A DNA stretch of 64,000 bases from Acidimicrobiia bacterium (lineage in GTDB: Bacteria; Actinomycetota; Acidimicrobiia; IMCC26256; JACDBD01), in contig JBOGFI010000072.1 in the NCBI GenBank assembly GCA_050743365.1, positions 25,667 through 89,666 on the forward strand, written 5' to 3'. The position numbers were made by a program, and so were the translations under genes. Under the pieces are notes generated by a model. It saw only the letters and a list, made by a program, of their open reading frames with translations. It made no database searches and had not been told where the DNA came from. Each line of letters starts with the position of its first letter. Within the stretch, counting starts at the first letter, position 1. Positions 37,552 through 63,073 of this stretch are shown piece after piece.

Positions 37552-37671
37552 CGTGCTCCCCCCGACTCACCGTTACCCTAGTGACAAGGCCGCGGCCCGC
37601 CGGAGCGCCATCGACGACGTCATCGAGAGCGGTTCGCGGTAGCGATGCCACGCAGCGCGCGCGCGCCCGCT

Positions 37672-37700: not shown

Positions 37701-37741
37701 GCCTGGCCTTCGCGGGTAAGGGACGACGCCGGGGAGACGTG

Positions 37742-37870
37742 ATGGCCCAACGACTAGCCTTCGCGCGCAGCGTGGTCGTGGAAGGCGTCGCCGCCCACGA
37801 CGATCCCCGTCGGCGCGCGTGTCGCGAGGAGTTCATCGCATCGACAGCTGACGTCCGTGGAGGCGCGTGA
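37742..37870 (+). CDS. Possible upstream small ORF (42 aa) translationally coupled to rfbF
   Basis: ATG at 37742 lies 5 nt after GGGGAG. Own translation: MAQRLAFARSVVVEGVAAHDDPRRRACREEFIASTADVRGGA. Its stop overlaps the rfbF start (TGATG). GC3 is only moderate (about 30 of 42 codons end in G or C), so coding status is uncertain. Confidence 0.25.
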   Translation: MAQRLAFARSVVVEGVAAHDDPRRRACREEFIASTADVRGGA

Positions 37871-44713: not shown

Positions 44714-44758
44714 GGGCGCGATGCCCAAGAGCCCGCGTGCACCCGACACCGGCCCGGC

Positions 44759-45985
44759 ATGACCCGGGTCGGCGCGTCGGGAGGCTCTGCGTGCGTGACG
44801 TGCAGGGGGGAGGCGCTGACGCGCGTCCTCCGGGTCGAGTCGGTCCCGGCGCTCGTCAACCGGCGCTGGCCCGACGCGGAATCCGCGCGAGCAGCCCCGC
44901 GGGGCGACATCGAGCTGGTCCTGTGCGAGGAATGCGGGACGATACACAATGCCGCCTTCGATCCGAGCCTCGTCGTGTACACCCCTGCATACGAGAACTC
45001 GCTCCACTTCTCGCCGACCTTCGAGCGGCACGCGCACTCCGTTGCCGAACGGCTCGTCAAGACGTACGACGTTCGTGGAAAGGAAGTGCTCGACATCGGC
45101 TGCGGGAAGGGCGAGTTCCTCGAGCTCATCTGCGCCGCCGGCGGCAACCGCGGCGTCGGCTACGACCCCACCTACGACGGGGAGCTCGACGACGTCGCCG
45201 GCGCGCGGAACCTCCGGTTCGTGCGCGAGCTCTTCCCGGAGATGGGGCACGCGAGGGGGGCCGACCTGGTCTGCTCCCGGCACGTGCTCGAGCACGATCC
45301 CGAGCCCAGGGCGTTCCTCGGCCGGCTGGCCCGGGCCATAGGCGACGCTCCGACCATCCTCGACCTCGAGGTCCCCGATGCCCTCCACATGCTGCGCGAG
45401 CTCGCGATCTGGGACGTCATCTACGAGCACCCGTTGTACTTTTGTGCCATCTCCCTCTCGCGGCTGGTCCGCGAGATGGGGTTCGAGGTCCTCGAGACGG
45501 GACCCACCTTCGGCGGGCAGTACCTTTATCTGCAAGCGGCGCGATCGGGCACTCCGGACTCCGTCGGGCCGGCTGCTGACGTCACCGCCGAGCTGCGGGA
45601 GCTGGGCAGGTCGTTCGGTCGCGGCTTCGACGCGGTTGTGCAGATCTGGCGTGAGCGCCTCGAGGAGCTCGAACGTGAAGGTCGCCGGGTGGCGCTCTGG
45701 GGCGCCGGGTCGAAGGGCGTGACCTTCCTCAACGTCGTGCCCGGCGCCGACCGTCTCGAGTGGGTCGTCGATATCAACCGCCGGAAGCAGGGGGCGTTCG
45801 TCGCCGGCACCGGCCAGCGCATCGTGGCGCCCGAACAGCTCGCGAGCGCGTCACCGGACGTGGTGATCGTCCTCAACCCGCTCTACGCCTCCGAGATCCG
45901 TGCCTGGTTGCGAGAGCTCGCCATCGACGCCGAGGTGATCGGGCCGGAGGACGCGACTCGAGCCCGCCACCGTCTGGCGCGATGA
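44759..45985 (+). CDS. Zn-ribbon SAM-dependent methyltransferase; module M4
   Basis: 408 aa. Motifs are CVTCRG...CEECG, LDIGCGKGEFL, HVLEH, WDVIYEH, WGAGSKG and NRRKQG, all in canonical form. Confidence 0.85.
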   Translation: MTRVGASGGSACVTCRGEALTRVLRVESVPALVNRRWPDAESARAAPRGDIELVLCEECGTIHNAAFDPSLVVYTPAYENSLHFSPTFERHAHSVAERLVKTYDVRGKEVLDIGCGKGEFLELICAAGGNRGVGYDPTYDGELDDVAGARNLRFVRELFPEMGHARGADLVCSRHVLEHDPEPRAFLGRLARAIGDAPTILDLEVPDALHMLRELAIWDVIYEHPLYFCAISLSRLVREMGFEVLETGPTFGGQYLYLQAARSGTPDSVGPAADVTAELRELGRSFGRGFDAVVQIWRERLEELEREGRRVALWGAGSKGVTFLNVVPGADRLEWVVDINRRKQGAFVAGTGQRIVAPEQLASASPDVVIVLNPLYASEIRAWLRELAIDAEVIGPEDATRARHRLAR

Positions 45986-48786: not shown

Positions 48787-49683
48787 ATGTCCGACGGTCG
48801 TCCCCGGGTAAGCGTCGGCCTTCCCGTGTACAACGGGCAGGCGTTCCTTGCCGAGGCAATCGAGTCGATCCTTGCCCAGGACTTCACCGACCTCGAGCTG
48901 GTCATCGGTGACAACGCGTCGACCGATGCGACTCCGGAGATCTGCCGCCGGTACCTCGGCGCCGATGGAAGGGTCTCGTACCTCCGTAGCGAGGTGAACC
49001 GGGGCGCGGCATGGAACTTCAGCCGGCTCGTGGACGCCGCCCGGGGCGAGTACTTCAAGTGGGCCGCCAGCGACGACGTTTGTGCGCCCACATACCTCTC
49101 TCGCTGCGTCGAGGTACTCGATCACCAGGCGGACGTCGTGCTCTGCTCGACGGGAACCGTCATGATCGACGAGCGGGGTCAACCGATCGGGCCGCTGGAG
49201 ATCACGAACCACGGGACCGCGGGCGAGCCGGCGGAACGATTTCGGGATCTTGTGCTCCGGCCGCACAAGGCCTTCTCGGTGTTCGGCGTGATCCGACGAG
49301 ACGCCCTCTGCGAAACGCCACGGCTGGGCGCCTACACGGCATCCGACCTGGTGACACTGGCCGAGCTCGCGCTCAGGGGGCGGTTCCACGAGGTGCCGGA
49401 ACCGCTGTTCTTCAACCGTGACCACGGCGGGCGCTCGATCCGCGCGAATCCCACCTACAAGGCGAGGCAACCCTGGTTCGATCCGAACCGGGCGGGCAGG
49501 ATCACGCTTCCTCGGTGGCGGCTTGGCATCGAATACGCGCGGGCAATCGGTCGCGCTCCGCTGTCCTCCGTTCAGCGGAGGCAGGCGTACGAAGCACTCG
49601 CGAGGTGGAGCTGGGCCAATGGGCTGTCACTCGGCAACGACATCGTTCGCGCGGCCCGCGACCTGGGCCGGTTCTCTCAGTAG
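48787..49683 (+). CDS. Glycosyltransferase family 2
   Basis: The N-terminus is MSDGRPRVSVGLPVYNGQAFLAEAIESILAQDFTDLELVIGDNASTDAT. It is a paralogue of 52955..53893. Confidence 0.85.
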   Translation: MSDGRPRVSVGLPVYNGQAFLAEAIESILAQDFTDLELVIGDNASTDATPEICRRYLGADGRVSYLRSEVNRGAAWNFSRLVDAARGEYFKWAASDDVCAPTYLSRCVEVLDHQADVVLCSTGTVMIDERGQPIGPLEITNHGTAGEPAERFRDLVLRPHKAFSVFGVIRRDALCETPRLGAYTASDLVTLAELALRGRFHEVPEPLFFNRDHGGRSIRANPTYKARQPWFDPNRAGRITLPRWRLGIEYARAIGRAPLSSVQRRQAYEALARWSWANGLSLGNDIVRAARDLGRFSQ

Positions 49684-50531
49684 CCGCCCAACACGCCGAG
49701 TTTGCGGCCATACTCGAGTGACCGCCCGTACAGCCACAGGCCGAGCGGGTAGACGACGGCGATGAAGGTCGCGAGCATCAGGACTGCCTGGCCGGTGGAG
49801 GGACCGGAGATCGCCGAGCTGTCGGCCATCAGGAGCCGCCGCATCGCGCTGAGGGCGTAGGTCTGGGGAAGGCAGTAGGCGACGATCTTCAGCGGCAGCG
49901 GGAGCAGCGCCACCGGGAACACGACGCCGGCCAACACGGAGCTCGCGAGCGTGTAGAGGCTGAGCACGGGGTCAGACCGCTTGGACAGGACCTTCACGCT
50001 CGCGGCCACCACGCCGATCGCGTGGCCAGCTGCGATCCCGAGGGCCAGCACCACCAGGGCGGCCGGGACGCCCACCAGCCGGAGGTCGGCGCCGAGCGCG
50101 AGGGCCGTGCCCAGCCCGGCCAATCCGGCGCCGACGCTCACCAGCACGGGCCAGCCGGCGAGCCCGAACGGGATGAGCCGCCACCGGATCGGCTCGATGA
50201 GCAGCGTCTCGAACCGTCCCTGCTGCAACGCATAGTCCAGATGGTTCCCGAAGCCTCTGAGCCCCCCGTCCATCGCCAGGGCCGTGGTCAGGCCGATGAC
50301 CGCGAAGGTGTAGTAGCTGTCGCCCACCGACGGGCCGGAGTCGACGAGTCGAGCGACGAAGTAGTAGACGATCGGTGACGTCGTCGCGCTGACCAGCTGG
50401 ATGACGAGGAAGAGCGGGTACGCCATCGCTTCCGTGTACCCCATCCAGACGAAGGCCCCGGCGACCTGGGCGCCGCGTCGAGCCCTCGTCCACGGGACGC
50501 GTAGCCCAATCCTCTGCGACACGTGCGTCAC
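49677..50531 (-). CDS. ABC-2 type polysaccharide exporter permease (Wzm-like)
   Basis: It has six hydrophobic segments and a GTGA overlap with the ATPase gene at 50528-50531. It converges on the GT2 gene with a 7-bp overlap of the two 3' ends. Confidence 0.85.
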   Translation of the reverse strand: MTHVSQRIGLRVPWTRARRGAQVAGAFVWMGYTEAMAYPLFLVIQLVSATTSPIVYYFVARLVDSGPSVGDSYYTFAVIGLTTALAMDGGLRGFGNHLDYALQQGRFETLLIEPIRWRLIPFGLAGWPVLVSVGAGLAGLGTALALGADLRLVGVPAALVVLALGIAAGHAIGVVAASVKVLSKRSDPVLSLYTLASSVLAGVVFPVALLPLPLKIVAYCLPQTYALSAMRRLLMADSSAISGPSTGQAVLMLATFIAVVYPLGLWLYGRSLEYGRKLGVLGGY

Positions 50532-51583
50532 TCCGGCGGCTCCTCGACGAGCCTGGTGAGCAGCTCACGGAGCGGCATCCGCGCTTCCTCGATCGAGACC
50601 ACGTGAGCGAGATGGCCATCCAGGCTGACGAGCAGATCGCCCGTGCGTCCCGCCACCACGGCGGTGACCGAATCCGCCTCGACCTCCACCACCTCCACGC
50701 CCGGCGTGCTCACCAGCCCCCCGGCCGCAACTCTGGCGGTGTCGGCGTCGTCGAACCGGACCACCACTCGCGGATTTTCCCAGACGTCACGCAGCGAGTG
50801 GAGGTCTCCCCAGTGCACGAGCATGCCCCGATCGAGGAACGCGACATTGTCGTGGAGGGCGTCGATCTCCTCCAGACGGTGCGAGCTCAGGAGCACGGCG
50901 AGGCCCTGCTCCTTCGTCAGGCGCTCGATGAGGTTCAGGAGCGTGTGTGAGCCGACGGGGTCGACGTTGGCAGTGGGCTCGTCGAGGATGAGGACCCGCG
51001 GCCGGTGCAGCAGTGCCCGGGCGAGCTGGAGCCGGGCGCGCATCCCGCTCGAGAGCGCGAAGCCGGTGCGGGTGCGGGCATGGCCGAGCCCGACGATCTC
51101 GAGCGTCTCGCCCACGACTGCTTCGAGTCGCGACCCCGAGAGCCCCTGGAGCCGGCCGTGGAAGGCGAGATTCTGCTCGCACGTGTGCCGGAGGTAGAGG
51201 CTCCGATCGTCGGCGGGCATGAAGCCAACGAGCTTGCGTACTCGTCTCGGCTCGCGCTCGATGTCAGAGCCCATGATCGTCGCGCTGCCGTTCGTGGCGG
51301 TGGTGAGCCCGGTGAGGATGCGGAAGAGCGTCGACTTCCCCGCGCCGTTCGGGCCGACGACCGCGCACACCTCGCCCGGTCGCACCGACAGGGTGACGTC
51401 GTCGAGCGCGCGCACCGGCTGGTCGATGGCTGAGCGCAAGAGGAACCGCATCCACATCGGCGACGGCTCGTAGACCTTCGTGAGATGCTGGACCTCGACG
51501 ATCGGCTCTTGCGTTGCCCGAGGTTCGAGCTTGGTGGGGGCTGGGTGCACGGTGCCTTCGAGGTGGATCACGCCGGGCGTCAA
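50528..51583 (-). CDS. ABC transporter ATP-binding protein (Wzt-like) with a ~100-aa C-terminal extension
   Basis: Walker A is GPNGAGKST, the signature motif is LSSGMRARL and Walker B is VLILDEP. The start is uncertain: TTG at 51583, or GTG at 51571 or 51550. Confidence 0.9.
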   Translation of the reverse strand: MTPGVIHLEGTVHPAPTKLEPRATQEPIVEVQHLTKVYEPSPMWMRFLLRSAIDQPVRALDDVTLSVRPGEVCAVVGPNGAGKSTLFRILTGLTTATNGSATIMGSDIEREPRRVRKLVGFMPADDRSLYLRHTCEQNLAFHGRLQGLSGSRLEAVVGETLEIVGLGHARTRTGFALSSGMRARLQLARALLHRPRVLILDEPTANVDPVGSHTLLNLIERLTKEQGLAVLLSSHRLEEIDALHDNVAFLDRGMLVHWGDLHSLRDVWENPRVVVRFDDADTARVAAGGLVSTPGVEVVEVEADSVTAVVAGRTGDLLVSLDGHLAHVVSIEEARMPLRELLTRLVEEPPE

Positions 51584-51593
51584 TTGAAATTGA
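51580..51593. promoter_or_regulatory. AT-rich perfect palindrome TCAATT-GA-AATTGA in the divergent wzt / GT2 control region
   Basis: Read directly from the sequence. It is the most AT-rich 14-mer I noticed in the window. It overlaps the most upstream possible wzt start codon. Confidence 0.4.
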
Positions 51594-51966
51594 TGAGCGA
51601 ACTAGGCTACCCGCGTGAGTGCGGCAGGCAGAAATTCGGCGTGATCTCCGTGCCTGGATCGGGGTCCATCGGCGCGGGCAGGGCAGCATCGCTTCCATCA
51701 CCGACGAGACCACCCGCGTCCTCGCCGACCGGTCCGCGTTCTCGATCGTCGGCGGGCGCACCGGGCGGAGCCCCGCCCGCGAGGTGCCGGGCATCCAGCA
51801 TCCGGCGTTGGACGACCGGATGGACCGGCAGGTGCTCGACTCGCTCCCGGCGGTTCGCGACCGAGCGCGGCCGCGCGAGCGCTCAGCGCGCGAGACCTCG
51901 ACTCCGGCTCAGAAGGCGCTTGTCCGTCCCTCTATGCTCCCGGCCCAGGCTCCGAGGTGGCGCGAG

Positions 51967-52932
51967 ATGAGCATGAATAGATCTCGTGCCGGCGGTCAGC
52001 GGCACTCGCCGGCGTTCAGCGTCGTCGTGCCGACCTTCAATCGATCCGCGCTGGTCCCCCGGGCGATCCGGAGCGTGCTCCATCAGACGTTCACCGACTT
52101 CGACCTCATCGTCGTGGACGACGGTTCCACCGACGAAACGCCGGACGTGCTCGCGTCCATCCACGATCCACGGCTTCGCCTCGTGCGTCAGGAGAACCAG
52201 GGCTTGTCGGCAGCGCGCAACGCGGGTGCGGCGATCGCCGCCGGTGAATGGCTGACGTTCCTCGACGACGACGACGAGGCCCTCCCCGGATGGCTCGAGC
52301 TCTTCCGACGGCAGATCAACGGCTCCGCATGTGGCGTGGTGTGCTGCGGCGGCATCATCGTCGACGAACAGGGGCGCACGCTCCAGACCGTGAAGCCGGA
52401 GCAGCTCGGCCCCGCCTACGAGAACCAGGTGTGCTCTTTGCTCGCCGGCACGTACGGCGTACGCCGTGAGCTGTTCGACGCGGTGTGCGGGTATGTCCCC
52501 GGCCTGCGGGCTTCGCACGGGACGGAGCTCGTGTTTCGCCTGTTGCCGCACTGCGTCTCCCGGGGCTTGACCGTCCGCAGCACCTCCGAGCCCGGGGTGA
52601 GAATCGAGTCGCGGCCGGCCGCGCAACGAAATCGGGGGAAGCCCGACGTCCTCCTCGACGGGGTGACGTACATCCTGGAGCGTCACCGCGACCGCATCCG
52701 ACTGTCGCCGCAGACCTTTGCCGACTTCACGTCGATAGCCGGTGTCAACGCAGCTCGCCTGGGGAGATACCGTGAAGCTCGCCGGTTTCTCGCTCAGGCG
52801 ATCCGGGCCGAGCCGCTGGCGCCGAGGCGATGGGCACGACTCCTGCTGAGCCTCGTGCCGCCGCTGGGCGACCGGGTGTGGCGACGGTGGGATGCCGGGG
52901 CGTCGAACCCTCCGCCGAAGGTAGTTGCGTGA
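51967..52932 (+). CDS. Glycosyltransferase family 2
   Basis: ATG at 51967 gives MSMNRSRAGGQRHSPAFSVVVPTFNRSALVPRAIRSVLHQTFTDFDLIVVDDGSTDET, and a LDDDDE motif is present. The in-frame upstream region back to GTG at 51619 also has high GC3, so a longer N-terminus cannot be excluded. Confidence 0.85.
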   Translation: MSMNRSRAGGQRHSPAFSVVVPTFNRSALVPRAIRSVLHQTFTDFDLIVVDDGSTDETPDVLASIHDPRLRLVRQENQGLSAARNAGAAIAAGEWLTFLDDDDEALPGWLELFRRQINGSACGVVCCGGIIVDEQGRTLQTVKPEQLGPAYENQVCSLLAGTYGVRRELFDAVCGYVPGLRASHGTELVFRLLPHCVSRGLTVRSTSEPGVRIESRPAAQRNRGKPDVLLDGVTYILERHRDRIRLSPQTFADFTSIAGVNAARLGRYREARRFLAQAIRAEPLAPRRWARLLLSLVPPLGDRVWRRWDAGASNPPPKVVA

Positions 52933-52954
52933 TGAGGTTCTCCGAGGTCGGCTG

Positions 52955-53893
52955 ATGAGCGACAACGCACCTACGGTGACCGTGGGCCTGCCCGTGTACA
53001 ACGGTGGCCAACACGTCGCTCAGTGCTTGGATTCATGGCTCGCGCAGGAGTTCGAGGATTTCGAGGTGATCGTCTCCGACAACGCCTCGGAAGATGGGAC
53101 GGAAGCGATCTGTCGTGAGTACGCGTCCAGGGACCCGAGGATCAGGTACCACCGGAACGCCAGCAATCTCGGGGCGGCCGCCAACTCGAACCGCGTGTTC
53201 GGCCTGGCGTCCGGGAAGTACTTCAAGCTGAGCGGTCACGACGACTGGTTCTCGCCCAAGCTGTTGTCACACTGCGTCGAGGTGCTGGAGAATCGGCCGG
53301 ACGTCGTTCTTTGCTACTGGCTCGAGACGATCGTCGACAGCCGAGACGACGTCCTGCGTGCCTACGACGAGAGCCAGCGCTTCGCCGTGGATTCGCCCCG
53401 CGCCAGCGAGCGCTTCCATGAGTGGTTGTGGTCCTTCGTGTCCGGTGCTCGCGGCGATCCGATCTACGGGATGATTCGAACCGAGGTGACGAGGACGGTC
53501 AGGCCCCTGTATCCCGGATTCCAGTCGAACTTCGTCTACCTTGCCGAGCTCAGCCTGCAGGGACCCTGGCACACTGTGCCCGAGCATCTGGCGTTCCGGC
53601 GTGCCAATACCGCGCGAGTCACCGTGCCGGCGATGATGACCTGGCTGGAGCCCCAGAACTCGCGGCGCGTTCGATTCCCTCATTGGCGACGCTGGTGCGA
53701 GTACCTCAGGGTGTTGCTCACGAGTCAGCAGCTGACCGCGAGGGAGAAGGCATACCTCTCTCTGAACACGTCCTACTACTTCTTCTCGCGCGACCTAAAG
53801 GGTCTGGCGTGGGATCTTCCGTACGCAGCCCGCCAGCTGATCGCGTTGCAGAAGGAAAGGCGGGCTCGACCCGCAAACGCCCCGAGTGCGTGA
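52955..53893 (+). CDS. Glycosyltransferase family 2
   Basis: ATG at 52955 lies 7 nt after GAGG. The N-terminus is MSDNAPTVTVGLPVYNGGQHVAQCLDSWLAQEFEDFEVIVSDNASEDGT. Confidence 0.85.
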   Translation: MSDNAPTVTVGLPVYNGGQHVAQCLDSWLAQEFEDFEVIVSDNASEDGTEAICREYASRDPRIRYHRNASNLGAAANSNRVFGLASGKYFKLSGHDDWFSPKLLSHCVEVLENRPDVVLCYWLETIVDSRDDVLRAYDESQRFAVDSPRASERFHEWLWSFVSGARGDPIYGMIRTEVTRTVRPLYPGFQSNFVYLAELSLQGPWHTVPEHLAFRRANTARVTVPAMMTWLEPQNSRRVRFPHWRRWCEYLRVLLTSQQLTAREKAYLSLNTSYYFFSRDLKGLAWDLPYAARQLIALQKERRARPANAPSA

Positions 53894-53918
53894 TGCGTCT
53901 CACGCATCCAGCCAACGG

Positions 53919-54464
53919 TCAGCGCCGAGACCTCGCGGTGCGGGGCTCACCGTAGGCGTTCAGCTCCTCGGGCGTCCGACCGAGCACGGCGGCGAGGACC
54001 TCCACATCGGTGGCGCGGATCGTCACGAGCCGGCTGTAGCGCTCCTCGCGCCGCCGCTGGATCTCGGCGACGAAGCGCAGAAGAACGGCAGCGTCGGGAT
54101 CGTCGGTCTTCGCGAGCCGGTTGAGATCGACCATGTATCGCAGCTCCGCCTCGGTCTCGGCGGTCTCGGTGAGGTCGATCTCGACACCGACCTCACGCGG
54201 CAGGAGCTCCTCGACCGGGACCCGGTACAACCGGGCGAGCCGCAGCAGTCGCGGCAGCGAGATCACCCGCTCGCCTCGCTCGTAGGCGCCGAGCGCCGAC
54301 GCCTTGAACTCGAGCGCCGAGCGTGCCTGCACGTCGTGGAGCGACAGTCCCTTCTCGCGCCTGACCGTTCGCAGGCGGTCGCCCACCTCCGAGCTGATCC
54401 CGTGCAGGGGGCTCCCGGTCCCTCCCGACGGCGTTATGCGCACTACGCGCGTGCCCTCGCGCAC
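53919..54464 (-). CDS. BldD-like XRE-family transcriptional regulator
   Basis: The HTH region VGDRLRTVRREKGLSLHDVQARSALEFKASALGAYERGERVISLPRLLRLARLYRVPVEELLP aligns without gaps to the Streptomyces BldD N-terminal domain as I recall it. The C-terminal region LRFVAEIQRRREERYSRLVTIRATDVEVLAAV aligns to the BldD c-di-GMP-binding region. The start is uncertain (GTG at 54464 or downstream GTGs). Confidence 0.75.
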   Translation of the reverse strand: MREGTRVVRITPSGGTGSPLHGISSEVGDRLRTVRREKGLSLHDVQARSALEFKASALGAYERGERVISLPRLLRLARLYRVPVEELLPREVGVEIDLTETAETEAELRYMVDLNRLAKTDDPDAAVLLRFVAEIQRRREERYSRLVTIRATDVEVLAAVLGRTPEELNAYGEPRTARSRR

Positions 54465-54569
54465 TGCGTGGTAAGTTTAGGGGCACCGGCGTGACTTGTG
54501 GGGGATTTCGCGGAGTTTTGTGCACCTTCCCCTGGGTATCGTGGCGGTACCGTGAGGCTGGGGCACCCC

Positions 54570-55907
54570 ATGCATCGACGTCGATCCTCGCTCGTCCGCG
54601 GGCTCCTGTGCGTCGTCGCGGCCGCGGCGGCGTGCAGCAGCGGGGGCGACTCGGCATCGGATCCCCGCACCCGACGGCCCGCCCCGACAGCCGCTGACTC
54701 AGCCGGAGCCTGTGGGCGCGTGCCCGAGCCCCGCGAGGCGGAGGGGCCGTCCGCCGAGACGGTCCTGCTGCAGGGGCCCGACGACGGCGGTCCCGCGGTC
54801 GAGGCGGCGGTGTACCCCCGGCCCGACTACCGCGGCGATCCCTGGTCCCAATGGGGCCAGGGCGTGGTGTTGGCGGACGGGCGCTTCGTGTCCGCGATCG
54901 GCGATCACCTCGGGCCCGACGGCAACTCCTACCTGTTCGTGTACGAGCCGGAACGCGAGCGCATCACCCGATTCGCCGACGTGCTCTCGCACGCCGAGCA
55001 CGAAGCGGGCGACTGGGGGTACGGCAAGGTGCACGGGCAGATGGTGGCGGGCCCGTGCGGGGAGGTCTTCTTCGGCACGTACTACGGGGACCTCGACGGC
55101 CTCCAATACGGCGGTACGTACCGGGGCGACCTGCTCTTCCGCGTGGATCCGTCGACCCTGGAGATCGAGCAGCTCGGCGTGCCGGTGCCCGAGCGGGGCC
55201 TGCCGTCGCTCGCCGGTCCGACCCCCGACGGGATCCTCTACGGGGAGGCGGTCGACCCGCTCCCGGCCGATCCCGACGCCTATCCCGGGGGCGCGTTCTT
55301 CGCCTACGACCCCGCCCGCGACCGGACCCTCTTCCGCTCGGACGACGAGCGTCACGGCGGCTTCCGCAACATCCTCGTCGACGGTGAGGGAACCGCCTAT
55401 CTGGCTACCGACGACAGCCGCCTCCTCGTCTACGAGCCGGGTTCGAGCGAGCTGCGGGTCCACCCCGAGCGCCTGCCCGGCGGATGGCTCCGAGCGTCGA
55501 CTCTCCCCGCGCCCGACGGCACCGTGTACGGCGTCACGAACGAGCCGTTCAATCTCTTCGCGCTCCGGCCCGACGGAAGCATCCGCGACCTCGGCCCCGC
55601 CGGTGGCTACACCGCGTCGCTTGCCCTGCACCCGGATGGCCGTCGCTTCTTCTTCGTGCCCGGTGCGCACGGCGATTCGTGGCAGAAGGGGACCCCACTC
55701 GTCGCGGTCGATACCGACACCGGTGAGCAAGAGGTCGTCGTCGAGCTCAACCAGCTGGCGGAACAGGAGCTGAACCTCACCTTGGGCGGGACGTACAACG
55801 TCGCGGTCGACCCCTCAGGCGAGCGCGTCTACGTCGGGTTCAACGCCGGACCTGATCGCGACGACCCCTGGGGCCAAGTGGTGCTGGTGGTGGTCCACCT
55901 GCGATGA
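54570..55907 (+). CDS. Hypothetical secreted lipoprotein, beta-propeller-like
   Basis: ATG at 54570 gives MHRRRSSLVRGLLCVVAAAAACSSGG, a lipoprotein-type signal. The repeated YG/DG-rich strands suggest a propeller. No family was recognised. Confidence 0.6.
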   Translation: MHRRRSSLVRGLLCVVAAAAACSSGGDSASDPRTRRPAPTAADSAGACGRVPEPREAEGPSAETVLLQGPDDGGPAVEAAVYPRPDYRGDPWSQWGQGVVLADGRFVSAIGDHLGPDGNSYLFVYEPERERITRFADVLSHAEHEAGDWGYGKVHGQMVAGPCGEVFFGTYYGDLDGLQYGGTYRGDLLFRVDPSTLEIEQLGVPVPERGLPSLAGPTPDGILYGEAVDPLPADPDAYPGGAFFAYDPARDRTLFRSDDERHGGFRNILVDGEGTAYLATDDSRLLVYEPGSSELRVHPERLPGGWLRASTLPAPDGTVYGVTNEPFNLFALRPDGSIRDLGPAGGYTASLALHPDGRRFFFVPGAHGDSWQKGTPLVAVDTDTGEQEVVVELNQLAEQELNLTLGGTYNVAVDPSGERVYVGFNAGPDRDDPWGQVVLVVVHLR

Positions 55908-57616
55908 GGCGCGCCCGCGACGCAGCCGCAGCGCTGGTGCTCGCGGCGTGCACGGCAACCGCCTGCAGCGGCGAGGACACGCGTCGGCGCGACGCCGCTC
56001 CGGCCCCGGCTACGGAAGCCCGTCCCCCGGTCGACCAGGCTCCGGCGGCGACGGCGCCCTGCTACGAGGCGCCGAGGGCCGGCGGCGGGGGCACGGTCAC
56101 GTTCTCCGACGCCACCGAGGACCTCGGCCTGGTGGAGCCGCTGGCCGGGATGCGCGCCCACGCGACCGCGGTTGGCGACGTCGACGCCGATGGCTGGACC
56201 GACCTCTTCGTGGGCACGTTCGCCGACCGGCCACTCGAGGACTACCGGGTGCGCGGGGCCGACGGGCCCGCTCCCGACCGGCTCCTCCTGGGTGGTCCCA
56301 CCGGGTTCCGGCCCGACCCGTCGTTTCCCGGCGAGCTGGGCAGGACGAGCGGGGCCGCCTTCGCCGATCTCGACGGCGACGCCGACCTCGACCTCGTGCT
56401 CTCGCGGAACCACCGCGGTGAGGAGCGGGGGCGGGCGGCATCGGTGGTGCTACGCAACGACGCGGGCGGCTTCTCGATGGCGACCGAGCTCGATGCCCGA
56501 CGAGGAGGCCGCTCGATCGGAGTGCTCGACTACGACGGCGACGGCGCCCTCGACCTGGTGCTCGTCGAGGACCGTGTGAGCGGGGGCTCGACCGCCCTGT
56601 TCCACAATGATGGTGCCTTGCGCTTCTCGGAGGCGACGACGTCGGCGGGCCTGCCGGCCGACGTCCACGGTCTCGGAGTTGCCACCGCCGACCTCAACGG
56701 CGACAGCAGGCCGGACCTCTTCGTGGCCGGCTCGAACCGTCTCTTCGTGAACACCGGCGAGGGACGGTTCCGGGAGGGCGACTCCGAGGTGTTCGCCTGG
56801 AAGCGCTTCGGCGACGAGGACGACGCCGCCGGTGTCGCCGTGGGGGACGTGGACCGCGACGGCCGACCGGACCTCGTCGTCGGCCAGCACTACAACAGCA
56901 CCATCGACGACGGGCGGCGGGTCTCCGTTCGTCTCTACCTCAACCAAGGACCCGACGGGTCCGGCGAGCCGGTCTTCCGCGACGTGACGAAGGAGGCGGG
57001 GCTGATCGGGCTCCCCACGAAAGCGCCCCACGTCGAGATCGTCGACCTCGACGCCGACGGTTGGCCCGACATCCTCACGAGCGCCTCCGCCGCTGACGGC
57101 ACGCGCCCGGCGGTGTTCCGTCACCTCGGCCTCGCCGATGGCTCCCCGCGATTCGAGCCACCGGCGGGCATCGGGAAGCCCCAGTACTGGGTGGCCGGCG
57201 CCACGCTCGATGCCGACCGCGACGGGCGTCTCGACGTGTTCATCGCCGAGTTCGAACCGGAGCTCGGCTCCCGCTTGTTGCGCAACGACAGCGACACCGC
57301 CCACTGGCTGGCCGTCGCCGTGGGGCCGTCGGGAGCGGGCGGGATCGGCGCCACCGTCGACGTGTACCGGGGCGGACGGCTCGGCGAACGGGCGGATCTG
57401 CTCGGGACGAGCGAGATCGCGGCGTCGACCGGGTACGGGTCGGGATCTGCGCCACTGGCACGCTTTGGCCTCGGGGGCGAGTCCCGCGTCGACGTGGTCG
57501 TGCGCTTCCCGGACGGACGGCCGCCGCTGGACCTCCGGGCAGTGGCTGCCGACCGGCTGCTCGAGGTGGCCCCGGAGGCCGGCTGTGACGGGGGACCGTG
57601 CACGTCCTGTACGTGA
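55904..57616 (+). CDS. FG-GAP/VCBS-repeat lipoprotein with an ASPIC/UnbV-like C-terminus (CRTAC1-like)
   Basis: ATGA overlap at 55904. The signal is MRRARDAAAALVLAACTATAC, with lipobox LAAC. Repeated DVDADGWTDLFVG, DLDGDADLDLV, DYDGDGALDLV, DLNGDSRPDLFV, DVDRDGRPDLVV and DLDADGWPDIL motifs follow. Confidence 0.75.
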   Translation: MRRARDAAAALVLAACTATACSGEDTRRRDAAPAPATEARPPVDQAPAATAPCYEAPRAGGGGTVTFSDATEDLGLVEPLAGMRAHATAVGDVDADGWTDLFVGTFADRPLEDYRVRGADGPAPDRLLLGGPTGFRPDPSFPGELGRTSGAAFADLDGDADLDLVLSRNHRGEERGRAASVVLRNDAGGFSMATELDARRGGRSIGVLDYDGDGALDLVLVEDRVSGGSTALFHNDGALRFSEATTSAGLPADVHGLGVATADLNGDSRPDLFVAGSNRLFVNTGEGRFREGDSEVFAWKRFGDEDDAAGVAVGDVDRDGRPDLVVGQHYNSTIDDGRRVSVRLYLNQGPDGSGEPVFRDVTKEAGLIGLPTKAPHVEIVDLDADGWPDILTSASAADGTRPAVFRHLGLADGSPRFEPPAGIGKPQYWVAGATLDADRDGRLDVFIAEFEPELGSRLLRNDSDTAHWLAVAVGPSGAGGIGATVDVYRGGRLGERADLLGTSEIAASTGYGSGSAPLARFGLGGESRVDVVVRFPDGRPPLDLRAVAADRLLEVAPEAGCDGGPCTSCT

Positions 57617-58746
57617 TCGACAGCCTCGTTCCGGCGGGCGCCGAGCGGTCCCTGGAGGCGCTCGCTCCGCGTTACGCCGCCCGGGGCGTGCGCCTGGACG
57701 TCGCCTACCTCCACGAGCGCGCCGGGCTCCACCAGCAGCTCGAGGCAGCCGGCGCTCGCCTCTTCACGCTCGCGGGCCACGGCGGCCGCGCCGGGTGGGT
57801 CCGGCGAGCGGCGTCGCTGACCGCGCGGCTCCGTCCCGATCTCGTCCACACGACCCTCTTCGAGGCCGACGTCACCGGCCGAGTCGCGGCACGCCTCGCG
57901 CGCGTCCCCGTCGTCTCGAGCCTCGTGAACGAGGTCTACGGGGCCGCGCACGTGGGCGATCCCGAACTGCGCCGGTGGAAGGTGCGCGGCGCGCAGCTAC
58001 TCGACGCCGCGACCGCCCGCCTCGCAAGCCGGCTCCATGCCGTCTCCGGTCACGTGGCCGACACCATGGCGCGCCAGATTCGCTTCCCCCGGGAGCGCAT
58101 CGACGTCGTCCCGCGCGGCCGCGACCCGGCCCGGCTCGGTCGGCGGACGCCGGCGCGGCGGGCCGCGGCGCGGACGCGCCTCGGTGTGGGTGACCGGGCA
58201 CCGTTGCTGCTGGCCGTCGCTCGCCAGGAGCACCAGAAGGGTCTCGACGTGCTGCTTGATGCCGTCGCGCTCGTACGGAACGAGGTGCCGGAGGCTCGGC
58301 TCGTCGTCGCCGGGCGAGCGGGAAGCCAGACGCCGTTACTCCGCGACCGCGTGAGCCGACTGCGACTGGGTGACGCGGTCTCCTTCCTCGGGAGCAGGGA
58401 CGACGTGGCCGACCTGCTGTGCGCCGCCGACGTGTTCGTACTGCCCTCCCGCCGCGAGGGTCTGCCCGGCTCGGTGCTGGAAGCGATGGCACTGGAGGCG
58501 CCGATCGTGGCCAGCGACCTGGCCGAGGTACGTGAGGTGGTCGACGGCGACTGCGCCCGCCTGGTCGCCCCCGGCTCGCCCGAGGCACTGGCGGCCGCGA
58601 TCGCGGGCGTCATGAGCGACCCGGCACCTGCCGGTGCCCGCGCCCGCCGGGCGGCCGCCCGGTTCTACGAGCGCTTCACCATCGATAGGGTCGCCGATCA
58701 GATGCTGACCTTCTATGCACGCGCCCTCGATCGCCCGGCGCGGTGA
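57598..58746 (+). CDS. Glycosyltransferase family 4
   Basis: The N-terminus is VHVLYVIDSLVPAGAERSL. The C-terminal signature is LPSRREGLPGSVLEAMALEAPIVASDLAEVREVVDG. Confidence 0.85.
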   Translation: MHVLYVIDSLVPAGAERSLEALAPRYAARGVRLDVAYLHERAGLHQQLEAAGARLFTLAGHGGRAGWVRRAASLTARLRPDLVHTTLFEADVTGRVAARLARVPVVSSLVNEVYGAAHVGDPELRRWKVRGAQLLDAATARLASRLHAVSGHVADTMARQIRFPRERIDVVPRGRDPARLGRRTPARRAAARTRLGVGDRAPLLLAVARQEHQKGLDVLLDAVALVRNEVPEARLVVAGRAGSQTPLLRDRVSRLRLGDAVSFLGSRDDVADLLCAADVFVLPSRREGLPGSVLEAMALEAPIVASDLAEVREVVDGDCARLVAPGSPEALAAAIAGVMSDPAPAGARARRAAARFYERFTIDRVADQMLTFYARALDRPAR

Positions 58747-59896
58747 GCGAGGCGACCGCGACGTGGTGACCGTGCTGTACCGCGGGCCCTTCCAGGGCCG
58801 GCGGCTCGGCTTCCTCCTCGAGTCGATCTCCCGGGTGCACGGCGAGGTGGACCTGACCTGGCTGAACCCGCGCCTCGAGCCCGGTGCCACGACCGGGTGG
58901 TTCTTCGAGTGGGTCGACGAGTGGTGGCCGTTCGTCGCGCGCCGCTCGGAGGTCGACGGCAATCTGCGCTCGCTGCCGCGGGTCGTGCGGCACCTCCGGC
59001 GCCGGCTCGGCCGCCGACCTGACGTCGTCTATGCGATCGGGTCGCTGACGCTCCCGTACGCGCGGGCGATCGCCCCTCGAGCGTTCGCCTGGTGCATCAA
59101 CGGAATCCCGGAGGAACGGCTGCTCCACGACCGCGGGTGGCGGTCGCAAACGGCCGTTCGAGCGGAATGGCTCGTCACGCGCGCCGGTCGGCGACCCGAC
59201 GTCGTGGTGACGGTCTCCGGTCCTATGGGGAAGCTGATCGAGCGCCGGCTCCCCGGCACGAGGTGGATCAACGCGCCGACGTGCGTCGACCTCGAGACGT
59301 TCCGGCCGCCGCCGAACGTGACGCGTTCGCGCCTCACCTACGTCGGGTCCGGGGCTCCCTGGCAGTGCCTCGACCTGCTGGCGGCGGTGTGGAGTGAGCT
59401 GTACCGCCTCGATCCGTCGCTGCGCTTCCGGGTGATCTCACGCGACGAGCGGACGCGGGTTCTCGCCGCGGCCCTGCCCGCCTCGGTGGTGGAGCTGCGC
59501 GGGGCGGAGGTGCCGCAGGAGGTGGCGACCGCCCTCTGGGAGGCGGAGCTGGGGTTCCTGCTCCGCACGCCGGGAATCGTGAACGAGACGTCGTTCCCTA
59601 CGAAGTTCGGCGAGTACGTGGCGGCCGGCGTCCCGGTGGTGAGCACCGACGTCGGCTGGGACCTGGCTGCGATGGTGCGAGGCACCGGGTGCGGGGTGAT
59701 CGTCGATTGGCGGGCGGACCCGTCCGTGGTCGCGAGGGATGCGCTCGCTCTGCGTCACCGTGCAACCCGGAACGGCGGCGACATTCGTCGGGCATGCGAG
59801 GAAGCCGCGGCGATGCTTGCCCGGGAGCGGTGGGTCGAAGCGCTCGCCCTTGCTCTACGCGACGAGTTGGCCCACGCGCGGCGCCGGGCCGACTAG
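58715..59896 (+). CDS. Glycosyltransferase-like protein (GT-B fold suspected)
   Basis: The C-terminal region is FPTKFGEYVAAGVPVVSTDVGWDLAAMVRGTGCGVIVD. The start is uncertain: ATG at 58715 overlaps the upstream gene by 32 nt, whereas GTG at 58763 follows a GAGG. Confidence 0.6.
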   Translation: MHAPSIARRGERGDRDVVTVLYRGPFQGRRLGFLLESISRVHGEVDLTWLNPRLEPGATTGWFFEWVDEWWPFVARRSEVDGNLRSLPRVVRHLRRRLGRRPDVVYAIGSLTLPYARAIAPRAFAWCINGIPEERLLHDRGWRSQTAVRAEWLVTRAGRRPDVVVTVSGPMGKLIERRLPGTRWINAPTCVDLETFRPPPNVTRSRLTYVGSGAPWQCLDLLAAVWSELYRLDPSLRFRVISRDERTRVLAAALPASVVELRGAEVPQEVATALWEAELGFLLRTPGIVNETSFPTKFGEYVAAGVPVVSTDVGWDLAAMVRGTGCGVIVDWRADPSVVARDALALRHRATRNGGDIRRACEEAAAMLARERWVEALALALRDELAHARRRAD

Positions 59897-59900
59897 ACGG

Positions 59901-60830
59901 TCAGGGAGTGCTCTCGAGGAGCAGCACCGTTCCACGCGGCCGCCGCACGGCATGCACGAGCGCGCTCGCCACGGATCGAACCGGCTGCCATTGACTGAGA
60001 CGCTGACGCAGAGGTATCCGCGCCTCGCGGAGGCCGGCTGTGGTCGTCATCGTCACGAGCGAGCGATGGTCGAAGCAGTTCAGGTGCTCGAGTGGCGCAA
60101 CCGCGTTGAGCGAGTCGGGCGAGCCCTTCGGAGCGTCCCAATCGCCGCGGGCGAGCCGGTCCTTGATGTCGGAGCCGTTCGGGACGCTGATTCGAAGGAT
60201 GCCACCGGGCCGCAGCGCGCGCCGGAGCCGAGCCGCGGTCTCCAGCGGTGCCGTCAGGTGCTCGAACACCTGCTCCGTGTTGATGAAGTGGAACCTACTC
60301 TCGGGGAGGTCCGTCTCGTCGAGCACCTCGACGGCCTGCTCGGTCGCGCGGTCGCGCCGCTCGTCCGAGAACTCGACGCCACTGACAGTGCATCCCAACG
60401 CCGCGGCCATCTGGAGCCAGATACCCCAACCCATTCCGTAGTCGAGAACCTCGACTTCCGACGGATCGACGCGGAAGTACTCGATGAGGCTCATGATCTG
60501 GAACGCGTACGTGCGACGCTGGTGCAGGCCACGTGCTACAGCCTTGTCGTGGGACTCCTCGCGGAGGATCCATTCCCCGTAGAGTGTTCTGAGCAACTCC
60601 GCGTCCGGTACGTGCTGCTGGAACACCAGCGAGCACGCATCGCACTCGGCAAGGGTGTAATGCCAGGGCGACAACCGCGCCGGGTCACATCGGCCACCAT
60701 AGAAGGAGAGCAAGTAGTCGCTGATGGGTGGCCGGTCGAAGGGGCAGTCGTAGAGCACACCGTGACTGGTCGCCGAGCAACCCGGACACGACTCGCGCCG
60801 CAGCAGCTGTTGCCTCCTGTGTTGCCTCAT
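59901..60830 (-). CDS. Class I SAM-dependent methyltransferase with an N-terminal Cys-rich segment
   Basis: The Cys-rich segment is CPGCS...CDACS. Motif I is VLDYGMGWGIW. Further motifs are FINTEQVFEHL and LRPGGILRISVPNG. Confidence 0.8.
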   Translation of the reverse strand: MRQHRRQQLLRRESCPGCSATSHGVLYDCPFDRPPISDYLLSFYGGRCDPARLSPWHYTLAECDACSLVFQQHVPDAELLRTLYGEWILREESHDKAVARGLHQRRTYAFQIMSLIEYFRVDPSEVEVLDYGMGWGIWLQMAAALGCTVSGVEFSDERRDRATEQAVEVLDETDLPESRFHFINTEQVFEHLTAPLETAARLRRALRPGGILRISVPNGSDIKDRLARGDWDAPKGSPDSLNAVAPLEHLNCFDHRSLVTMTTTAGLREARIPLRQRLSQWQPVRSVASALVHAVRRPRGTVLLLESTP

Positions 60831-61941
60831 GTGGGGTAAGCCTAACTACGCTCGCCGCAAGCGCGAGACGGACGTCCTCCAGGTCATCACGTCGACCGAC
60901 CGGAGGGGCGCGGAGGTCTTCGCCGTCGACCTGGGGGAGGCGCTGACCCGACGAGGACGGCGCGTCCGGACGGTCGCGCTGACCCCGGGTGACGCACCCG
61001 GTGGGCTCGACGTACCGACGCTGGGCCAGCGACGGCTGGGAGCGGGGACGCTCGCGGCGCTGCGGGTCGAGGCGCGAGCCGCCCGGCTCGTCATCGCGCA
61101 CGGATCGACCACGTTGCCGGCGTGTGCACTCGCGACCCTCGGCACCGGTGTTCCGTTCGTGTACCGGAACATCGGGGATCCGGCCCACTGGTCCGGCACG
61201 CGCGGGCGCCGGCTGCGGTCGTCGCTCCTGCTCCGGCGGGCGCGCGCCGTCGTGGCGCTCAGCCCCGGCACTGCCGGGGAACTGGCGGACCGGTACCGCG
61301 TGCAGCCGAGCCGCATTCGGGTCATCCCGACCGGGAGCCCGGCTAGCCGGTTTCAACCTGCCGACGAGGGGGCCCGGCTTCGGGGGCGGGAGACCTTCGG
61401 CCTGACGCGAACGCAGAAGGTGGTGCTGTACCTGGGGGCATTGAGCAGCGAGAAGAAGGTCGGGCTGGCCATCGAGGCTGTTGCCCGGCTGGCGGGCGTA
61501 CACCTGCTCGTCGTCGGCGACGGCCCCGAACGACGAGCACTCGAGCTCCTGGCGCGGGAGGTGGCACCCGAGGAAGTCCGCTTCGCCGGAGCAACCGAGG
61601 ACCCGGCGCAAGCACTGGCTGCGGCCGACGTGCTCGTGCTCCCGAGCAGCACCGAAGGCCTTCCCGCGGTCCTCATCGAGGCGGGCCTCAGCCGGGTGCC
61701 GGTGGTCGCAACCGACGTCGGGCTCGTTCGCGACATCGTCGTCGACCACCGAACCGGCTTGCTGGTGCCGACGGGTGATGTCGAAGCGCTGGCCGCCGCC
61801 CTGGCGGCCGCGCTCAGCGACGCCGCCCGGCTCGCCGAAGCGGCGCGCGTGCACTGTCTCGAGCGCTTCGAGCTCGGTGTGGTCGCCGCCCTCTGGCACG
61901 ACCTCATCTGCGAGATCATCGGCTTTCGGCTCGACGGTTAG
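60829..61941 (+). CDS. Glycosyltransferase family 4
   Basis: Motifs are VLQVITSTDRRGAEVFAVDL and LPSSTEGLPAVLIEAGLSRVPVVATDVGLVRDIVVDHRTGLLV. ATG at 60829 is the only in-frame start before the conserved core. Confidence 0.8.
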   Translation: MWGKPNYARRKRETDVLQVITSTDRRGAEVFAVDLGEALTRRGRRVRTVALTPGDAPGGLDVPTLGQRRLGAGTLAALRVEARAARLVIAHGSTTLPACALATLGTGVPFVYRNIGDPAHWSGTRGRRLRSSLLLRRARAVVALSPGTAGELADRYRVQPSRIRVIPTGSPASRFQPADEGARLRGRETFGLTRTQKVVLYLGALSSEKKVGLAIEAVARLAGVHLLVVGDGPERRALELLAREVAPEEVRFAGATEDPAQALAAADVLVLPSSTEGLPAVLIEAGLSRVPVVATDVGLVRDIVVDHRTGLLVPTGDVEALAAALAAALSDAARLAEAARVHCLERFELGVVAALWHDLICEIIGFRLDG

Positions 61942-61951
61942 GGTCCTGGCC

Positions 61952-63073
61952 GTGCGGGTGATCTGCGTGGCGGGCGCGCGACCCAACTTCATGAAGGTCA
62001 AGCCGGTGCTGGAGGTGCTGGAGGCGCGGCGCGTCGAGGTCGTGCTCGTGCACACCGGGCAGCACTACGACACCTCGATGAGCGACGTGTTCTTCGAGGA
62101 TCTCGGCCTCCGAAAGCCCGACTGGCACCTCGGGGTAGGGCCCGGCAGCCATGCCGCCCAGACCGGCAAGGTGATGATGGAGTTCGAGCCGCTCGTCGAG
62201 CGACTGTCGCCCGACGTCGTGATCGTCGTCGGCGACGTCAACTCGACGCTCGCCTGCGCGCTCGTGGCTGCGAAGGCCGGCCCGCTCCTGGCTCACGTCG
62301 AGGCGGGTCTGCGGAGCCGAGACTGGACCATGCCCGAGGAGATCAACCGCGTCGTCACCGACCGGGTGAGCGACCTGCTGTTCGTCCCGTCCGCTGACGC
62401 GGTGACGAACCTCGAGGCCGAGGGGTGCAGGCCCGACCAGATCCATCTCGTGGGGAACGTGATGGTCGACACGCTCATGGCGAACCTCGAACGCGCCCGG
62501 CAGCGTCCGGCGCTCGCGAGGTTCGGGGTGGAGGCGGGCGGCTACGGCCTCGTCACGTTGCACCGGCCGGCCAACGTGGACGACCCGTCGGAGCTGCGGC
62601 CGCTTCTCGATGCCCTGGGGGAGATCGCGCGCGAAGTGCCGCTGATCTTCCCGGTCCACCCTCGGGCGGCTGTCCGGCTCGAGGCCCTCGGGGCGCCAAG
62701 GGGCGTGACGGTCACCCCGCCCTTGCGCTACCTCGACTTCCTCGCGCTCGAGGCCGGGGCGCGGCTGGTCCTCACCGACTCGGGCGGCGTCCAGGAGGAG
62801 ACGACGGTGCTCGGCGTCGCGTGCTTGACGATTCGTGACACCACCGAGCGCCCCATCACTGTCAGCGAGGGCACGAACACGGTGGTGGGCCGGGACCCGC
62901 AACGAATCGTCGCCAACGCTTGTCGCGTGCTGCGGGACGGCGTCGAGGCCCGGCGCCCGTCCTTGTGGGACGGGCGGGCGAGCGAGCGGATCGCCGACGC
63001 CCTCCTCGAGGTCCGCCCGGGCCGGCCCCGACCGAGCGACGAAGACCGTCGGGCCGCGAGCCCGACCACGTGA
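61952..63073 (+). CDS. wecB: UDP-N-acetylglucosamine 2-epimerase (non-hydrolysing)
   Basis: In-frame GTG at 61952 gives VRVICVAGARPNFMKVKPVLEVL. Motifs are HTGQHYD, VVGDVNSTLA, HVEAGLRS and TDSGGVQEE. Confidence 0.9.
   Translation: MRVICVAGARPNFMKVKPVLEVLEARRVEVVLVHTGQHYDTSMSDVFFEDLGLRKPDWHLGVGPGSHAAQTGKVMMEFEPLVERLSPDVVIVVGDVNSTLACALVAAKAGPLLAHVEAGLRSRDWTMPEEINRVVTDRVSDLLFVPSADAVTNLEAEGCRPDQIHLVGNVMVDTLMANLERARQRPALARFGVEAGGYGLVTLHRPANVDDPSELRPLLDALGEIAREVPLIFPVHPRAAVRLEALGAPRGVTVTPPLRYLDFLALEAGARLVLTDSGGVQEETTVLGVACLTIRDTTERPITVSEGTNTVVGRDPQRIVANACRVLRDGVEARRPSLWDGRASERIADALLEVRPGRPRPSDEDRRAASPTT

Follow-up and report, generated by a model that had tools for sequence, protein, structure and literature searches.

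The DNA analysed here is a 64,000-nt stretch (the window) of contig JBOGFI010000072.1 from an Acidimicrobiia bacterium, and its minus strand between positions 53919 and 54464 encodes a relative of BldD, the textbook transcription factor that is dimerised by a tetramer of cyclic di-GMP (c-di-GMP). Our comparisons demonstrate that this gene is a divergent second copy (a paralogue) and not the BldD orthologue of its lineage. The longest open reading frame (ORF), counted from the first GTG (54464), comprises 181 residues, to which the residue numbers below refer, and its guanine-plus-cytosine (GC) content at the three codon positions (0.75/0.49/0.88) is typical for coding sequence in a window of 69.8% GC. 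The NCBI annotation begins at GTG 54386 and gives 155 residues (MGH9013464.1), and no start codons lie between V8 and V27. The true start is likely the GTG at 54443, yielding 174 residues, because other annotations of the identical protein use this form, a GAGGG is found 10 nt upstream, and helix 1 of the AlphaFold2 model begins at residue 19, which disfavors a start at V27. In cluster listings the window protein is identical to P0282, a 174-residue call, and to P0275, the 155-residue call MGH9013464.1 on a 96-kb contig, and an exact-sequence look-up matched the 174-residue form but neither the 181- nor the 155-residue form. A terminator-like hairpin with a T-rich tail (53860..53874, minus strand; one site versus 0.3 expected) follows the stop codon at a distance of 45 nt, overlapping the 3' end of a convergent family 2 glycosyltransferase (GT2) gene, and the transcript is therefore probably monocistronic.

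The protein resembles BldD in both of its domains. The XRE-type helix-turn-helix (HTH) DNA-binding domain (residues 26-87; 54204..54389, minus strand) was detected with the Pfam families HTH_31 (40.2 bits) and HTH_3 (35.3 bits), and the BldD-type C-terminal domain (residues 108-171; 53952..54143, minus strand) with BldD-like_C (PF21179), which matched residues 111-168 with 42.6 bits against a gathering score of 27. When all PDB chains were searched with phmmer, residues 25-89 aligned without gaps to the DNA-binding domain of BldD (2ewt; E=1.2e-14), and residues 108-168 likewise to the C-terminal domain in complex with c-di-GMP (5khd, 4oay and 4oaz; E=5e-4 to 1e-3). The AlphaFold2 model, with a mean predicted local distance difference test score of 75 (HTH domain ~80-94, C-terminal domain ~79-88), predicts strands at residues 109-113 and 146-150 and helices at 114-119, 123-138, 151-161 and 165-171, that is, two beta-alpha-alpha repeats and a short helix, which is the topology of the BldD C-terminal domain (PMC4151990). 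In Foldseek searches the best PDB match of the HTH model was again 2ewt (template modelling (TM) score 0.90, root-mean-square deviation 1.1 A, 45% identity), while the C-terminal model matched BldD 5tzf best (TM 0.73) and 2mc4 as well. In sequence and predicted fold the regulator is thus a member of the BldD family in the broad sense, in agreement with a sequence-only reading of this DNA that had preceded our analysis. The ungapped alignment to BldD described in that reading was reproduced within each domain but did not extend to the full length, over which BLASTP gave 35% identity across 153 residues with a 7-residue gap in the linker. It had also considered that ClgR or RamB might be closer, which was not the case: the RamB model NF038139 scored only 15 bits against a cut-off of 700, and the ClgR structures 3f51 and 3f52 matched the HTH domain only, at 23-25% identity and below the BldD matches in Foldseek, as did other XRE proteins, likewise more weakly than BldD.

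In Streptomyces BldD nine residues contact c-di-GMP: R114, D116, R125 and D128 specify the base, K84 and R130 touch the phosphates, I110 makes a van der Waals contact, and N118 and S123 form hydrogen bonds to the ligand (PMC4151990). Position 116 of motif 1 was reported to be strictly Asp in BldD homologues (PMC4151990), and the resulting signature RxD-x8-RxxD is said to show perfect conservation throughout the BldD proteins (PMC5499655). The phmmer alignment to the crystal chains paired 'rreerysrlvtiratd' of the window protein with 'qrgdyngkvlsirqdd', placing REE-x8-RATD on RGD-x8-RQDD with no shift of register, so that R139, E141, R150 and D153 correspond to BldD R114, D116, R125 and D128, respectively, as had been proposed. 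In the equivalent of motif 1 (R139-E140-E141 for R114-G115-D116; 54042..54050, minus strand; codons CGC GAG GAG) Asp is replaced by Glu, while the equivalent of motif 2 (R150-A151-T152-D153 for R125-Q126-D127-D128; 54006..54017, minus strand) retains the Arg and the last Asp and reads R-x-x-D at the x8 spacing. The window gene falls within a small subclade of about 25 sequences, all of which carry Glu at BldD position 116. Across 25 subclade sequences the equivalents of R114, R125 and D128 are invariant, as are Arg at the K84 position (R109 in the window protein), a phosphate contact described as always Lys or Arg, and Thr at the S123 position (T148); Ile at the I110 position is found in the window protein and in 24 of the 25, with Met in the remaining one. 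The N118 equivalent is Tyr in the window protein and variable in the subclade (Tyr, Pro, Ser or His), and the R130 equivalent is Glu in the window protein and in 14 of 25 sequences and Arg or Lys in the other 11. Of the accessory contacts K84, I110, N118, S123 and R130, now R, I, Y, T and E, three are accordingly kept or conservatively replaced and two lost, and in total six of the nine contact positions are retained or conservatively replaced. The description of the signature as near-canonical therefore held for the register, both arginines and the last aspartate, but not for the contacts at N118 and R130, nor for the motif segment as a whole, which is the least conserved part of the protein within the subclade.

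A large-database search returned 1,122 relatives, the top matches of which (~60% identity) were proteins of 160-166 residues from Acidimicrobiia metagenome-assembled genomes (MAGs). Among 120 family matches the motif segment was near-invariant as R-Q-D-F-N-G-R-x-L-T-I-R-R-D-D, the equivalents of R114, R125 and D128 being present in all 120 and that of D116 in 116; the four exceptions were the clusters closest to the window protein (P0001-P0004, 75-91% identity), with motifs reading REE...RA[ST]D or RDE...RADD. The canonical Acidimicrobiia genes in GTDB genomes reside in most loci in a conserved array, hrcA-dnaJ-rsmE-[bldD]-(HIT)-phoH-ybeY, which in loci L001-L005, L050-L055 and L088-L097 continues with -CNNM-era after ybeY. 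At the K84-equivalent position one large clade of these canonical copies has Gly, whereas others have Lys. No neighbor is common to the window gene and any of 44 canonical loci.

Both kinds of gene were found in the same genome. P0282 lies on contig CDHZZV010000334.1 of MAG GCA_975305365.1, also present in Logan run SRR27067773, and a 2-kb stretch of this contig is identical to the window. The same MAG and the same run contain, on contig CDHZZV010000103.1, the canonical protein P0026 (MGH9014434.1) with the signature RQD-x8-RRDD; its gene is located near the contig end and is followed by phoH-ybeY-CNNM-era-cox, and it lies downstream of hrcA-dnaJ-rsmE in those loci that are long enough to show the upstream genes. 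P0026 was also found in JGI sample 3300078279, the source of the contig encoding P0002. The GC contents of the P0282 and P0026 contigs are 0.696 and 0.698, and their tetranucleotide correlation with the window is 0.977, compared to 0.80-0.93 for other Acidimicrobiia loci. In a second MAG, MGH9013464.1 and MGH9014434.1 are NCBI accessions only 970 apart. Because GCA_975305365.1 also holds the canonical P0026 of the conserved housekeeping locus, the window gene is a paralogue. The two proteins share 59% identity without a gap over 145 residues including the linker, with a single residue difference in each of HTH helices 2 and 3. The family models gave the same ranking: the NCBIfam BldD equivalog NF050110 scored 308 bits for Streptomyces BldD, 161 for P0026, 148 for the canonical P0014 and 105-106 for the window protein (105.3) and P0002, below the cut-off of 250, and PF21179 scored 81 and 73 bits for canonical copies versus 43 and 40 for subclade members. 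These results leave an extremely low probability for the view that the window gene is itself the BldD orthologue of its genome, a global developmental or stationary-phase regulator that stands next to glycan genes by chance. It is the sole BldD-like gene in the 64-kb window and NF050110 is the best-scoring of all models for it, but P0026 of the same MAG occupies the syntenic locus and outscores it with both models. Chandra and Chater had previously pointed out a 'convincing orthologue of bldD in Acidimicrobium' (PMC4255298).

Replacement of D116 is not confined to the subclade. A HMMER search of 1.84 billion cluster representatives yielded 1,921 relatives, and among the best 149 of these (P0121-P0269) 78 carried RxD...RxxD, while about 23 representatives outside the subclade had Ala, Glu, Gly, His, Ile, Arg, Ser, Thr or Val in place of D116 with R114, R125 and D128 intact. 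Most of them also lacked the canonical F-N-G after motif 1, and three were further RxE clusters (P0130, P0132 and P0159). Likewise, copies in GTDB genomes outside the hrcA-dnaJ context were often D116-replaced (L033, L038, L040, L041 and L043). These signatures place the window gene in a group of 'motif-2-only' BldD-like proteins, as yet uncharacterised. It has in common with P0130, P0132, P0159 (RxE) and L040 and L043 (RxG, beside an EAL gene) the retention of R114, R125 and D128, the loss of D116 and a position outside the housekeeping locus, but these others are separate lineages (36-50% identity) in other genomic contexts, and none of them has been characterised. In L040 (1701-3104) and L043 (2122-3517), from MAGs of an Actinomycetes bacterium and an Acidimicrobiaceae bacterium, the EAL gene stands immediately upstream of the BldD-like gene, whose motif 1 is R-x-G and whose motif 2 is intact, and the EAL proteins are 38-39% identical to that of the window. 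Additional subclade members were obtained solely from 90% cluster lists; searches of GTDB genomes and JGI metagenomes for more RxE members gave only canonical or more distant copies among the matches listed. Full-text searches on BldD paralogues, and on BldD in combination with Acidimicrobiia, gave no relevant paper among those covered.

The two domains of the paralogue have evolved very differently. Any two canonical proteins are on average 90% identical in the HTH domain and equally so in the motif segment, compared to 76% across the C-terminal domain, and in canonical L001-type genes the ratio of nonsynonymous to synonymous substitution rates (omega) of the C-terminal domain is ~0.01 at synonymous divergences (dS) of 0.6-1.2. 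Members of the subclade are 94-97% identical to one another in the HTH domain, with omega of 0.08-0.22, whereas their C-terminal domains show omega of 0.41-0.56 (Nei-Gojobori method; dS 0.15-0.55), and their motif segment is only ~38% identical to that of canonical copies. In the duplicate the DNA-binding domain is thus under purifying selection, while the C-terminal domain has been largely freed from constraint or is adapting. Since omega is below 1 in both domains and the reading frame is intact in ~25 sequences, the window gene is not a pseudogene. A decaying duplicate without function could account for the fast-evolving C-terminal domain and for the omega of 0.6-1.3 over the N-terminal 25 codons of subclade genes, but we regard it as very improbable, given that the ~25 intact sequences come from several lineages, that constraint is evident in the N-terminal domain (and omega is below 1 in the C-terminal one), and that the position of the gene and its 5' region are conserved.

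The regulator is embedded among glycan genes, and by Pfam the whole window is polysaccharide-related. It is transcribed divergently from a gene for a 445-residue predicted lipoprotein (MHRRRSSLVRGLLCVVAAAAAC...; 54570..55907, plus strand) without Pfam family, across an intergenic region of which the regulator and a lipoprotein/FG-GAP/GT4 (family 4 glycosyltransferase) operon form the two sides (54465..54569). The remainder of the downstream glycan set (55904..63073, plus strand; assigned by Pfam and synteny) comprises an FG-GAP/ASPIC protein, GT4 glycosyltransferases and a UDP-GlcNAc 2-epimerase, and includes a methyltransferase gene on the minus strand (59901-60830; Pfam). On the other side, Pfam and synteny define a second group of glycan genes on both strands (48787..53893), namely a GT2 (48787-49683, plus strand), an ABC-2 permease (49677-50531, minus strand), an ABC ATPase (50528-51583, minus strand), a further GT2 (51619-52932, plus strand) and the GT2 that is convergent with the regulator (52925-53893, plus strand). 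The position between two glycan loci, which had been noted earlier, is therefore borne out by the flanking genes, and in relatives at 80-91% protein identity it is the same, divergent from the lipoprotein operon and convergent with GT2 genes. Subclade genes occupy this glycan locus in L046, L047, L049 and L086, and the lipoprotein gene is conserved and adjacent to the regulator in L046, L047, L048, L049 and L086; it is the likely first target. The lipoprotein together with the FG-GAP/ASPIC (CRTAC1-like) protein (54570-57616) adjoins the regulator in all related contigs.

At the 5' end of the regulator, a comparison of the window with L049, L046 and L048 revealed a near-invariant block of ~41 nt (54441..54481, minus strand), in which all 15-nt windows starting at 54481-54446 have 13-15 of 15 columns invariant. 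The block contains a -10-like TAAACT, the dyad GTGC-N6-GCAC (54451-54464) and, spaced 21 nt apart, two copies of AGTGCGC, and its conservation far exceeds the synonymous-site level of the adjoining coding sequence (dS 0.15-0.55 in the same genomes). This block is our best candidate for the promoter and an autoregulatory operator. A simple sigma-70 consensus scan of 53700-54800 gave no promoter, and promoter footprinting of canonical genes (L001-type, P0026) against the paralogue gave no convincing common motif.

The window also encodes the two diguanylate cyclases with I-sites and the one EAL phosphodiesterase that the sequence-only reading had listed. A polysaccharide cluster of the Wzx/Wzy type occupies 1-20.7 kb and ends in a Wzz/tyrosine-kinase gene (18889-20742, minus strand), which the EAL gene (21857-23134, minus strand) and one GGDEF gene (20844-21992, minus strand) directly adjoin. 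A second GGDEF gene (30384-31283, minus strand) is divergent from argS; in both GGDEF domains the I-site RxxD lies five residues ahead of GG[DE]EF. What we found of the circuit that had been drawn from c-di-GMP through the BldD-like protein to the glycan genes is co-location, with the enzyme genes 23-33 kb from the regulator and beside a different polysaccharide cluster. The EAL/GGDEF genes and the Wzz/tyrosine-kinase gene (18889-23134) form a tighter association of c-di-GMP and polysaccharide functions than that of the BldD-like gene. The ORFs listed for EAL and GGDEF share ~135 nt, so one start is probably miscalled.

With modest confidence we favor the reading that the window gene is a divergent BldD paralogue which serves as a local, autoregulated regulator of the glycan locus and whose C-terminal domain probably still binds c-di-GMP. 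Most likely it acts locally on transcription of the glycan locus in which it has been fixed, and we infer that it probably represses transcription and regulates its own promoter as well, the likely site of action being the short divergent promoter region in common with the lipoprotein/FG-GAP/GT4 operon. Binding of c-di-GMP via motif 2 seems probable because R150, D153 and R139 are intact, R109 occupies the K84 position and Glu141 could still read the guanine edge. In BldD the D116A mutant retains binding of a c-di-GMP dimer at motif 2 with a dissociation constant of 1.6 uM, D128A shows no binding, and residues 115-120 become ordered only when the second dimer binds (PMC5499655). The window protein resembles the half-loaded intermediate of BldD(D116A) (5tzf/5tzg; PMC5499655) in having R114 and motif 2 intact and the Asp of motif 1 altered, but its Glu, in contrast to Ala, could accept a hydrogen bond, and D116E is a natural variant conserved across the subclade, unlike D116A, a null mutant made in the laboratory. 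The combination of D116E with N118Y and a charge reversal at R130 makes a full BldD-style 2:4 tetramer complex doubtful for the window protein, and by its residues a half-loaded complex with a c-di-GMP dimer, or an altered affinity, would be at least as likely.

Several observations weigh against the favored reading. Motif 1 departs from the strict R-x-D, and two of the nine BldD contacts are gone, N118Y being non-conservative and R130E a charge reversal. No part of the protein evolves faster within the subclade than the motif segment (50-80% identity; omega 0.46-2.1, calculated from few sites), and conservation at contact positions does not significantly exceed that at other positions of the C-terminal domain (6 of 9 versus 27 of 57; Fisher p=0.24). 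The paralogy depends on MAG binning, although two assemblies, one sequencing run and the composition are all in agreement with it, and synteny is conserved among close relatives only, so that shared ancestry could explain it instead of functional linkage. Moreover, the BldD box TNAC-N5-GTNA, a Streptomyces consensus that may not be that of the Acidimicrobiia copies, occurs 3 times in the window against 5.1 expected and has no match in the four intergenic regions singled out earlier (54465-54569, 51584-51966, 37552-37869 and 3276-3317). Neither were the dyads taken from the conserved 5' region, GTCAC-N4-GTGNC (37 versus 32 expected), GTNAC-N4-GTNAC (19 versus 20.8) and AGTGC-N6-GCAC (14 versus 21.6), enriched in the window, nor did such patterns occur in the other intergenic regions singled out, and since these candidate dyads are not enriched we propose no regulon.

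Two alternatives differ from the favored reading mainly in what the C-terminal domain does. The protein might work exactly like Streptomyces BldD, binding a c-di-GMP tetramer in a 2:4 complex with Glu141 in the role of Asp116 and repressing the glycan genes at high c-di-GMP. In its favor, the four signature positions keep their acid or base character and do not vary within the subclade, Arg stands at the K84 position, the fold is preserved, and the window encodes GGDEF and EAL proteins. However, Asp is found in 116 of 120 family members, the otherwise invariant F-N-G that follows is lost in the window protein, and the contacts at N118 and R130 are changed; data on a D116E mutant were found neither in a literature search nor in the BldD papers (PMC4151990, PMC5499655). 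We consider such a strict equivalence rather unlikely. Conversely, the C-terminal domain might have lost c-di-GMP sensing altogether, so that the protein acts independently of a ligand, responds to another ligand or partner, or competes with the canonical BldD for operators. This would agree with a C-terminal domain that is ~40-fold less constrained than in canonical copies (omega ~0.5 versus ~0.01), with the lack of significant excess conservation at contact residues, with the flipped charge at a phosphate contact and with the replacement of D116 in ~23 of 149 representatives outside the subclade and in the non-syntenic L033, L038, L040, L041 and L043, and the nearly identical recognition helices would make competition for operators plausible. 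Yet the equivalents of R114, R125 and D128 persist in all D116 variants and in 25 of 25 subclade sequences, which is hard to explain without a guanine-nucleotide site, omega of the C-terminal domain is still below 1, and the Arg at the K84 position has been gained relative to the canonical Gly. A loss of sensing is also rather unlikely in our estimation, and a paralogue that binds c-di-GMP through motif 2 and acts on its own locus remains the interpretation we prefer.

Compared with Streptomyces BldD (SCO1489 and its S. venezuelae counterpart; 2ewt, 4oay, 4oaz, 5khd, 5tzd-g), the window protein has the same two-domain architecture, alignable without gaps in each domain, with R114, R125, D128 and I110 kept, K84 and S123 replaced by Arg and Thr, and a predicted fold that matches both crystal domains. 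It differs by D116E, N118Y and R130E, by an overall identity of 35% and by a linker that is 7 residues longer; the gene is away from the orthologous locus and has no BldD box in its promoters, and the host lineage shows no Streptomyces-type developmental genes within the window. The contrast to the canonical P0026 of the same genome is of another kind: at 59% identity and with near-identical HTH helices, the canonical copy combines RQD-FNGR-x-LTI-RRDD and the hrcA-dnaJ-rsmE-phoH-ybeY locus with a C-terminal omega of ~0.01, while the paralogue combines REE-RYSR-LVTI-RATD and the glycan locus with an omega of ~0.5. The canonical sensor is thus an ancient and extremely constrained core gene of Acidimicrobiia with which a second copy can coexist in one genome, and this duplicate retains the key Arg, acid, Arg and Asp positions although its ligand-binding segment has otherwise been freed from constraint. 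This provides a natural experiment on whether Glu can replace Asp116 and whether motif 2 alone suffices for a useful c-di-GMP response. The practical value is modest until c-di-GMP binding has been measured, and for now the regulator lies within the known logic of the BldD family, as a natural signature variant and a candidate local connection of c-di-GMP with glycan genes. More speculatively, and with a probability that we would put low, it may be one of an unrecognised radiation of 'motif-2-only' paralogues that arose from the ancient, highly constrained tetramer sensor and sense c-di-GMP at another stoichiometry, for instance as an intercalated dimer, or instead form heterodimers with the canonical BldD, so that in uncultured Actinomycetota that do not sporulate, local gene sets such as those for exopolysaccharide would respond to a c-di-GMP threshold of their own. 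Heterodimers bridged by c-di-GMP are conceivable because the recognition helices are near-identical and dimerisation of BldD is mediated by the ligand alone.

Some further features of the window concern its glycan genes. The part from 37.9 kb onward carries genes of the sugar-nucleotide, multi-methyltransferase, G8/beta-helix, GT2 and ABC-2 transporter types. At 39679-45985 four to five genes for C-methyltransferases (Methyltransf_13/14/23) stand in a row, including a 1,083-residue ORF (41462-44713) with two methyltransferase modules, the 5' part of which overlaps the preceding 397-residue ORF, and the run is followed by a G8/CEMIP beta-helix protein (45760-47892), so that this glycan locus is unusually methylation-rich. 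Just downstream of the second GGDEF gene and on the same strand lies a 276-residue ORF (29693-30523, minus strand) that has no Pfam match but is strongly coding-like in composition, with a GC content of 0.86 at third codon positions. A sulfotransferase gene (36625-37551) just upstream of the second glycan locus and a 943-residue asparagine-synthase-like amidotransferase (3514-6345) in the first one suggest that sulfated and amidated sugars are made.

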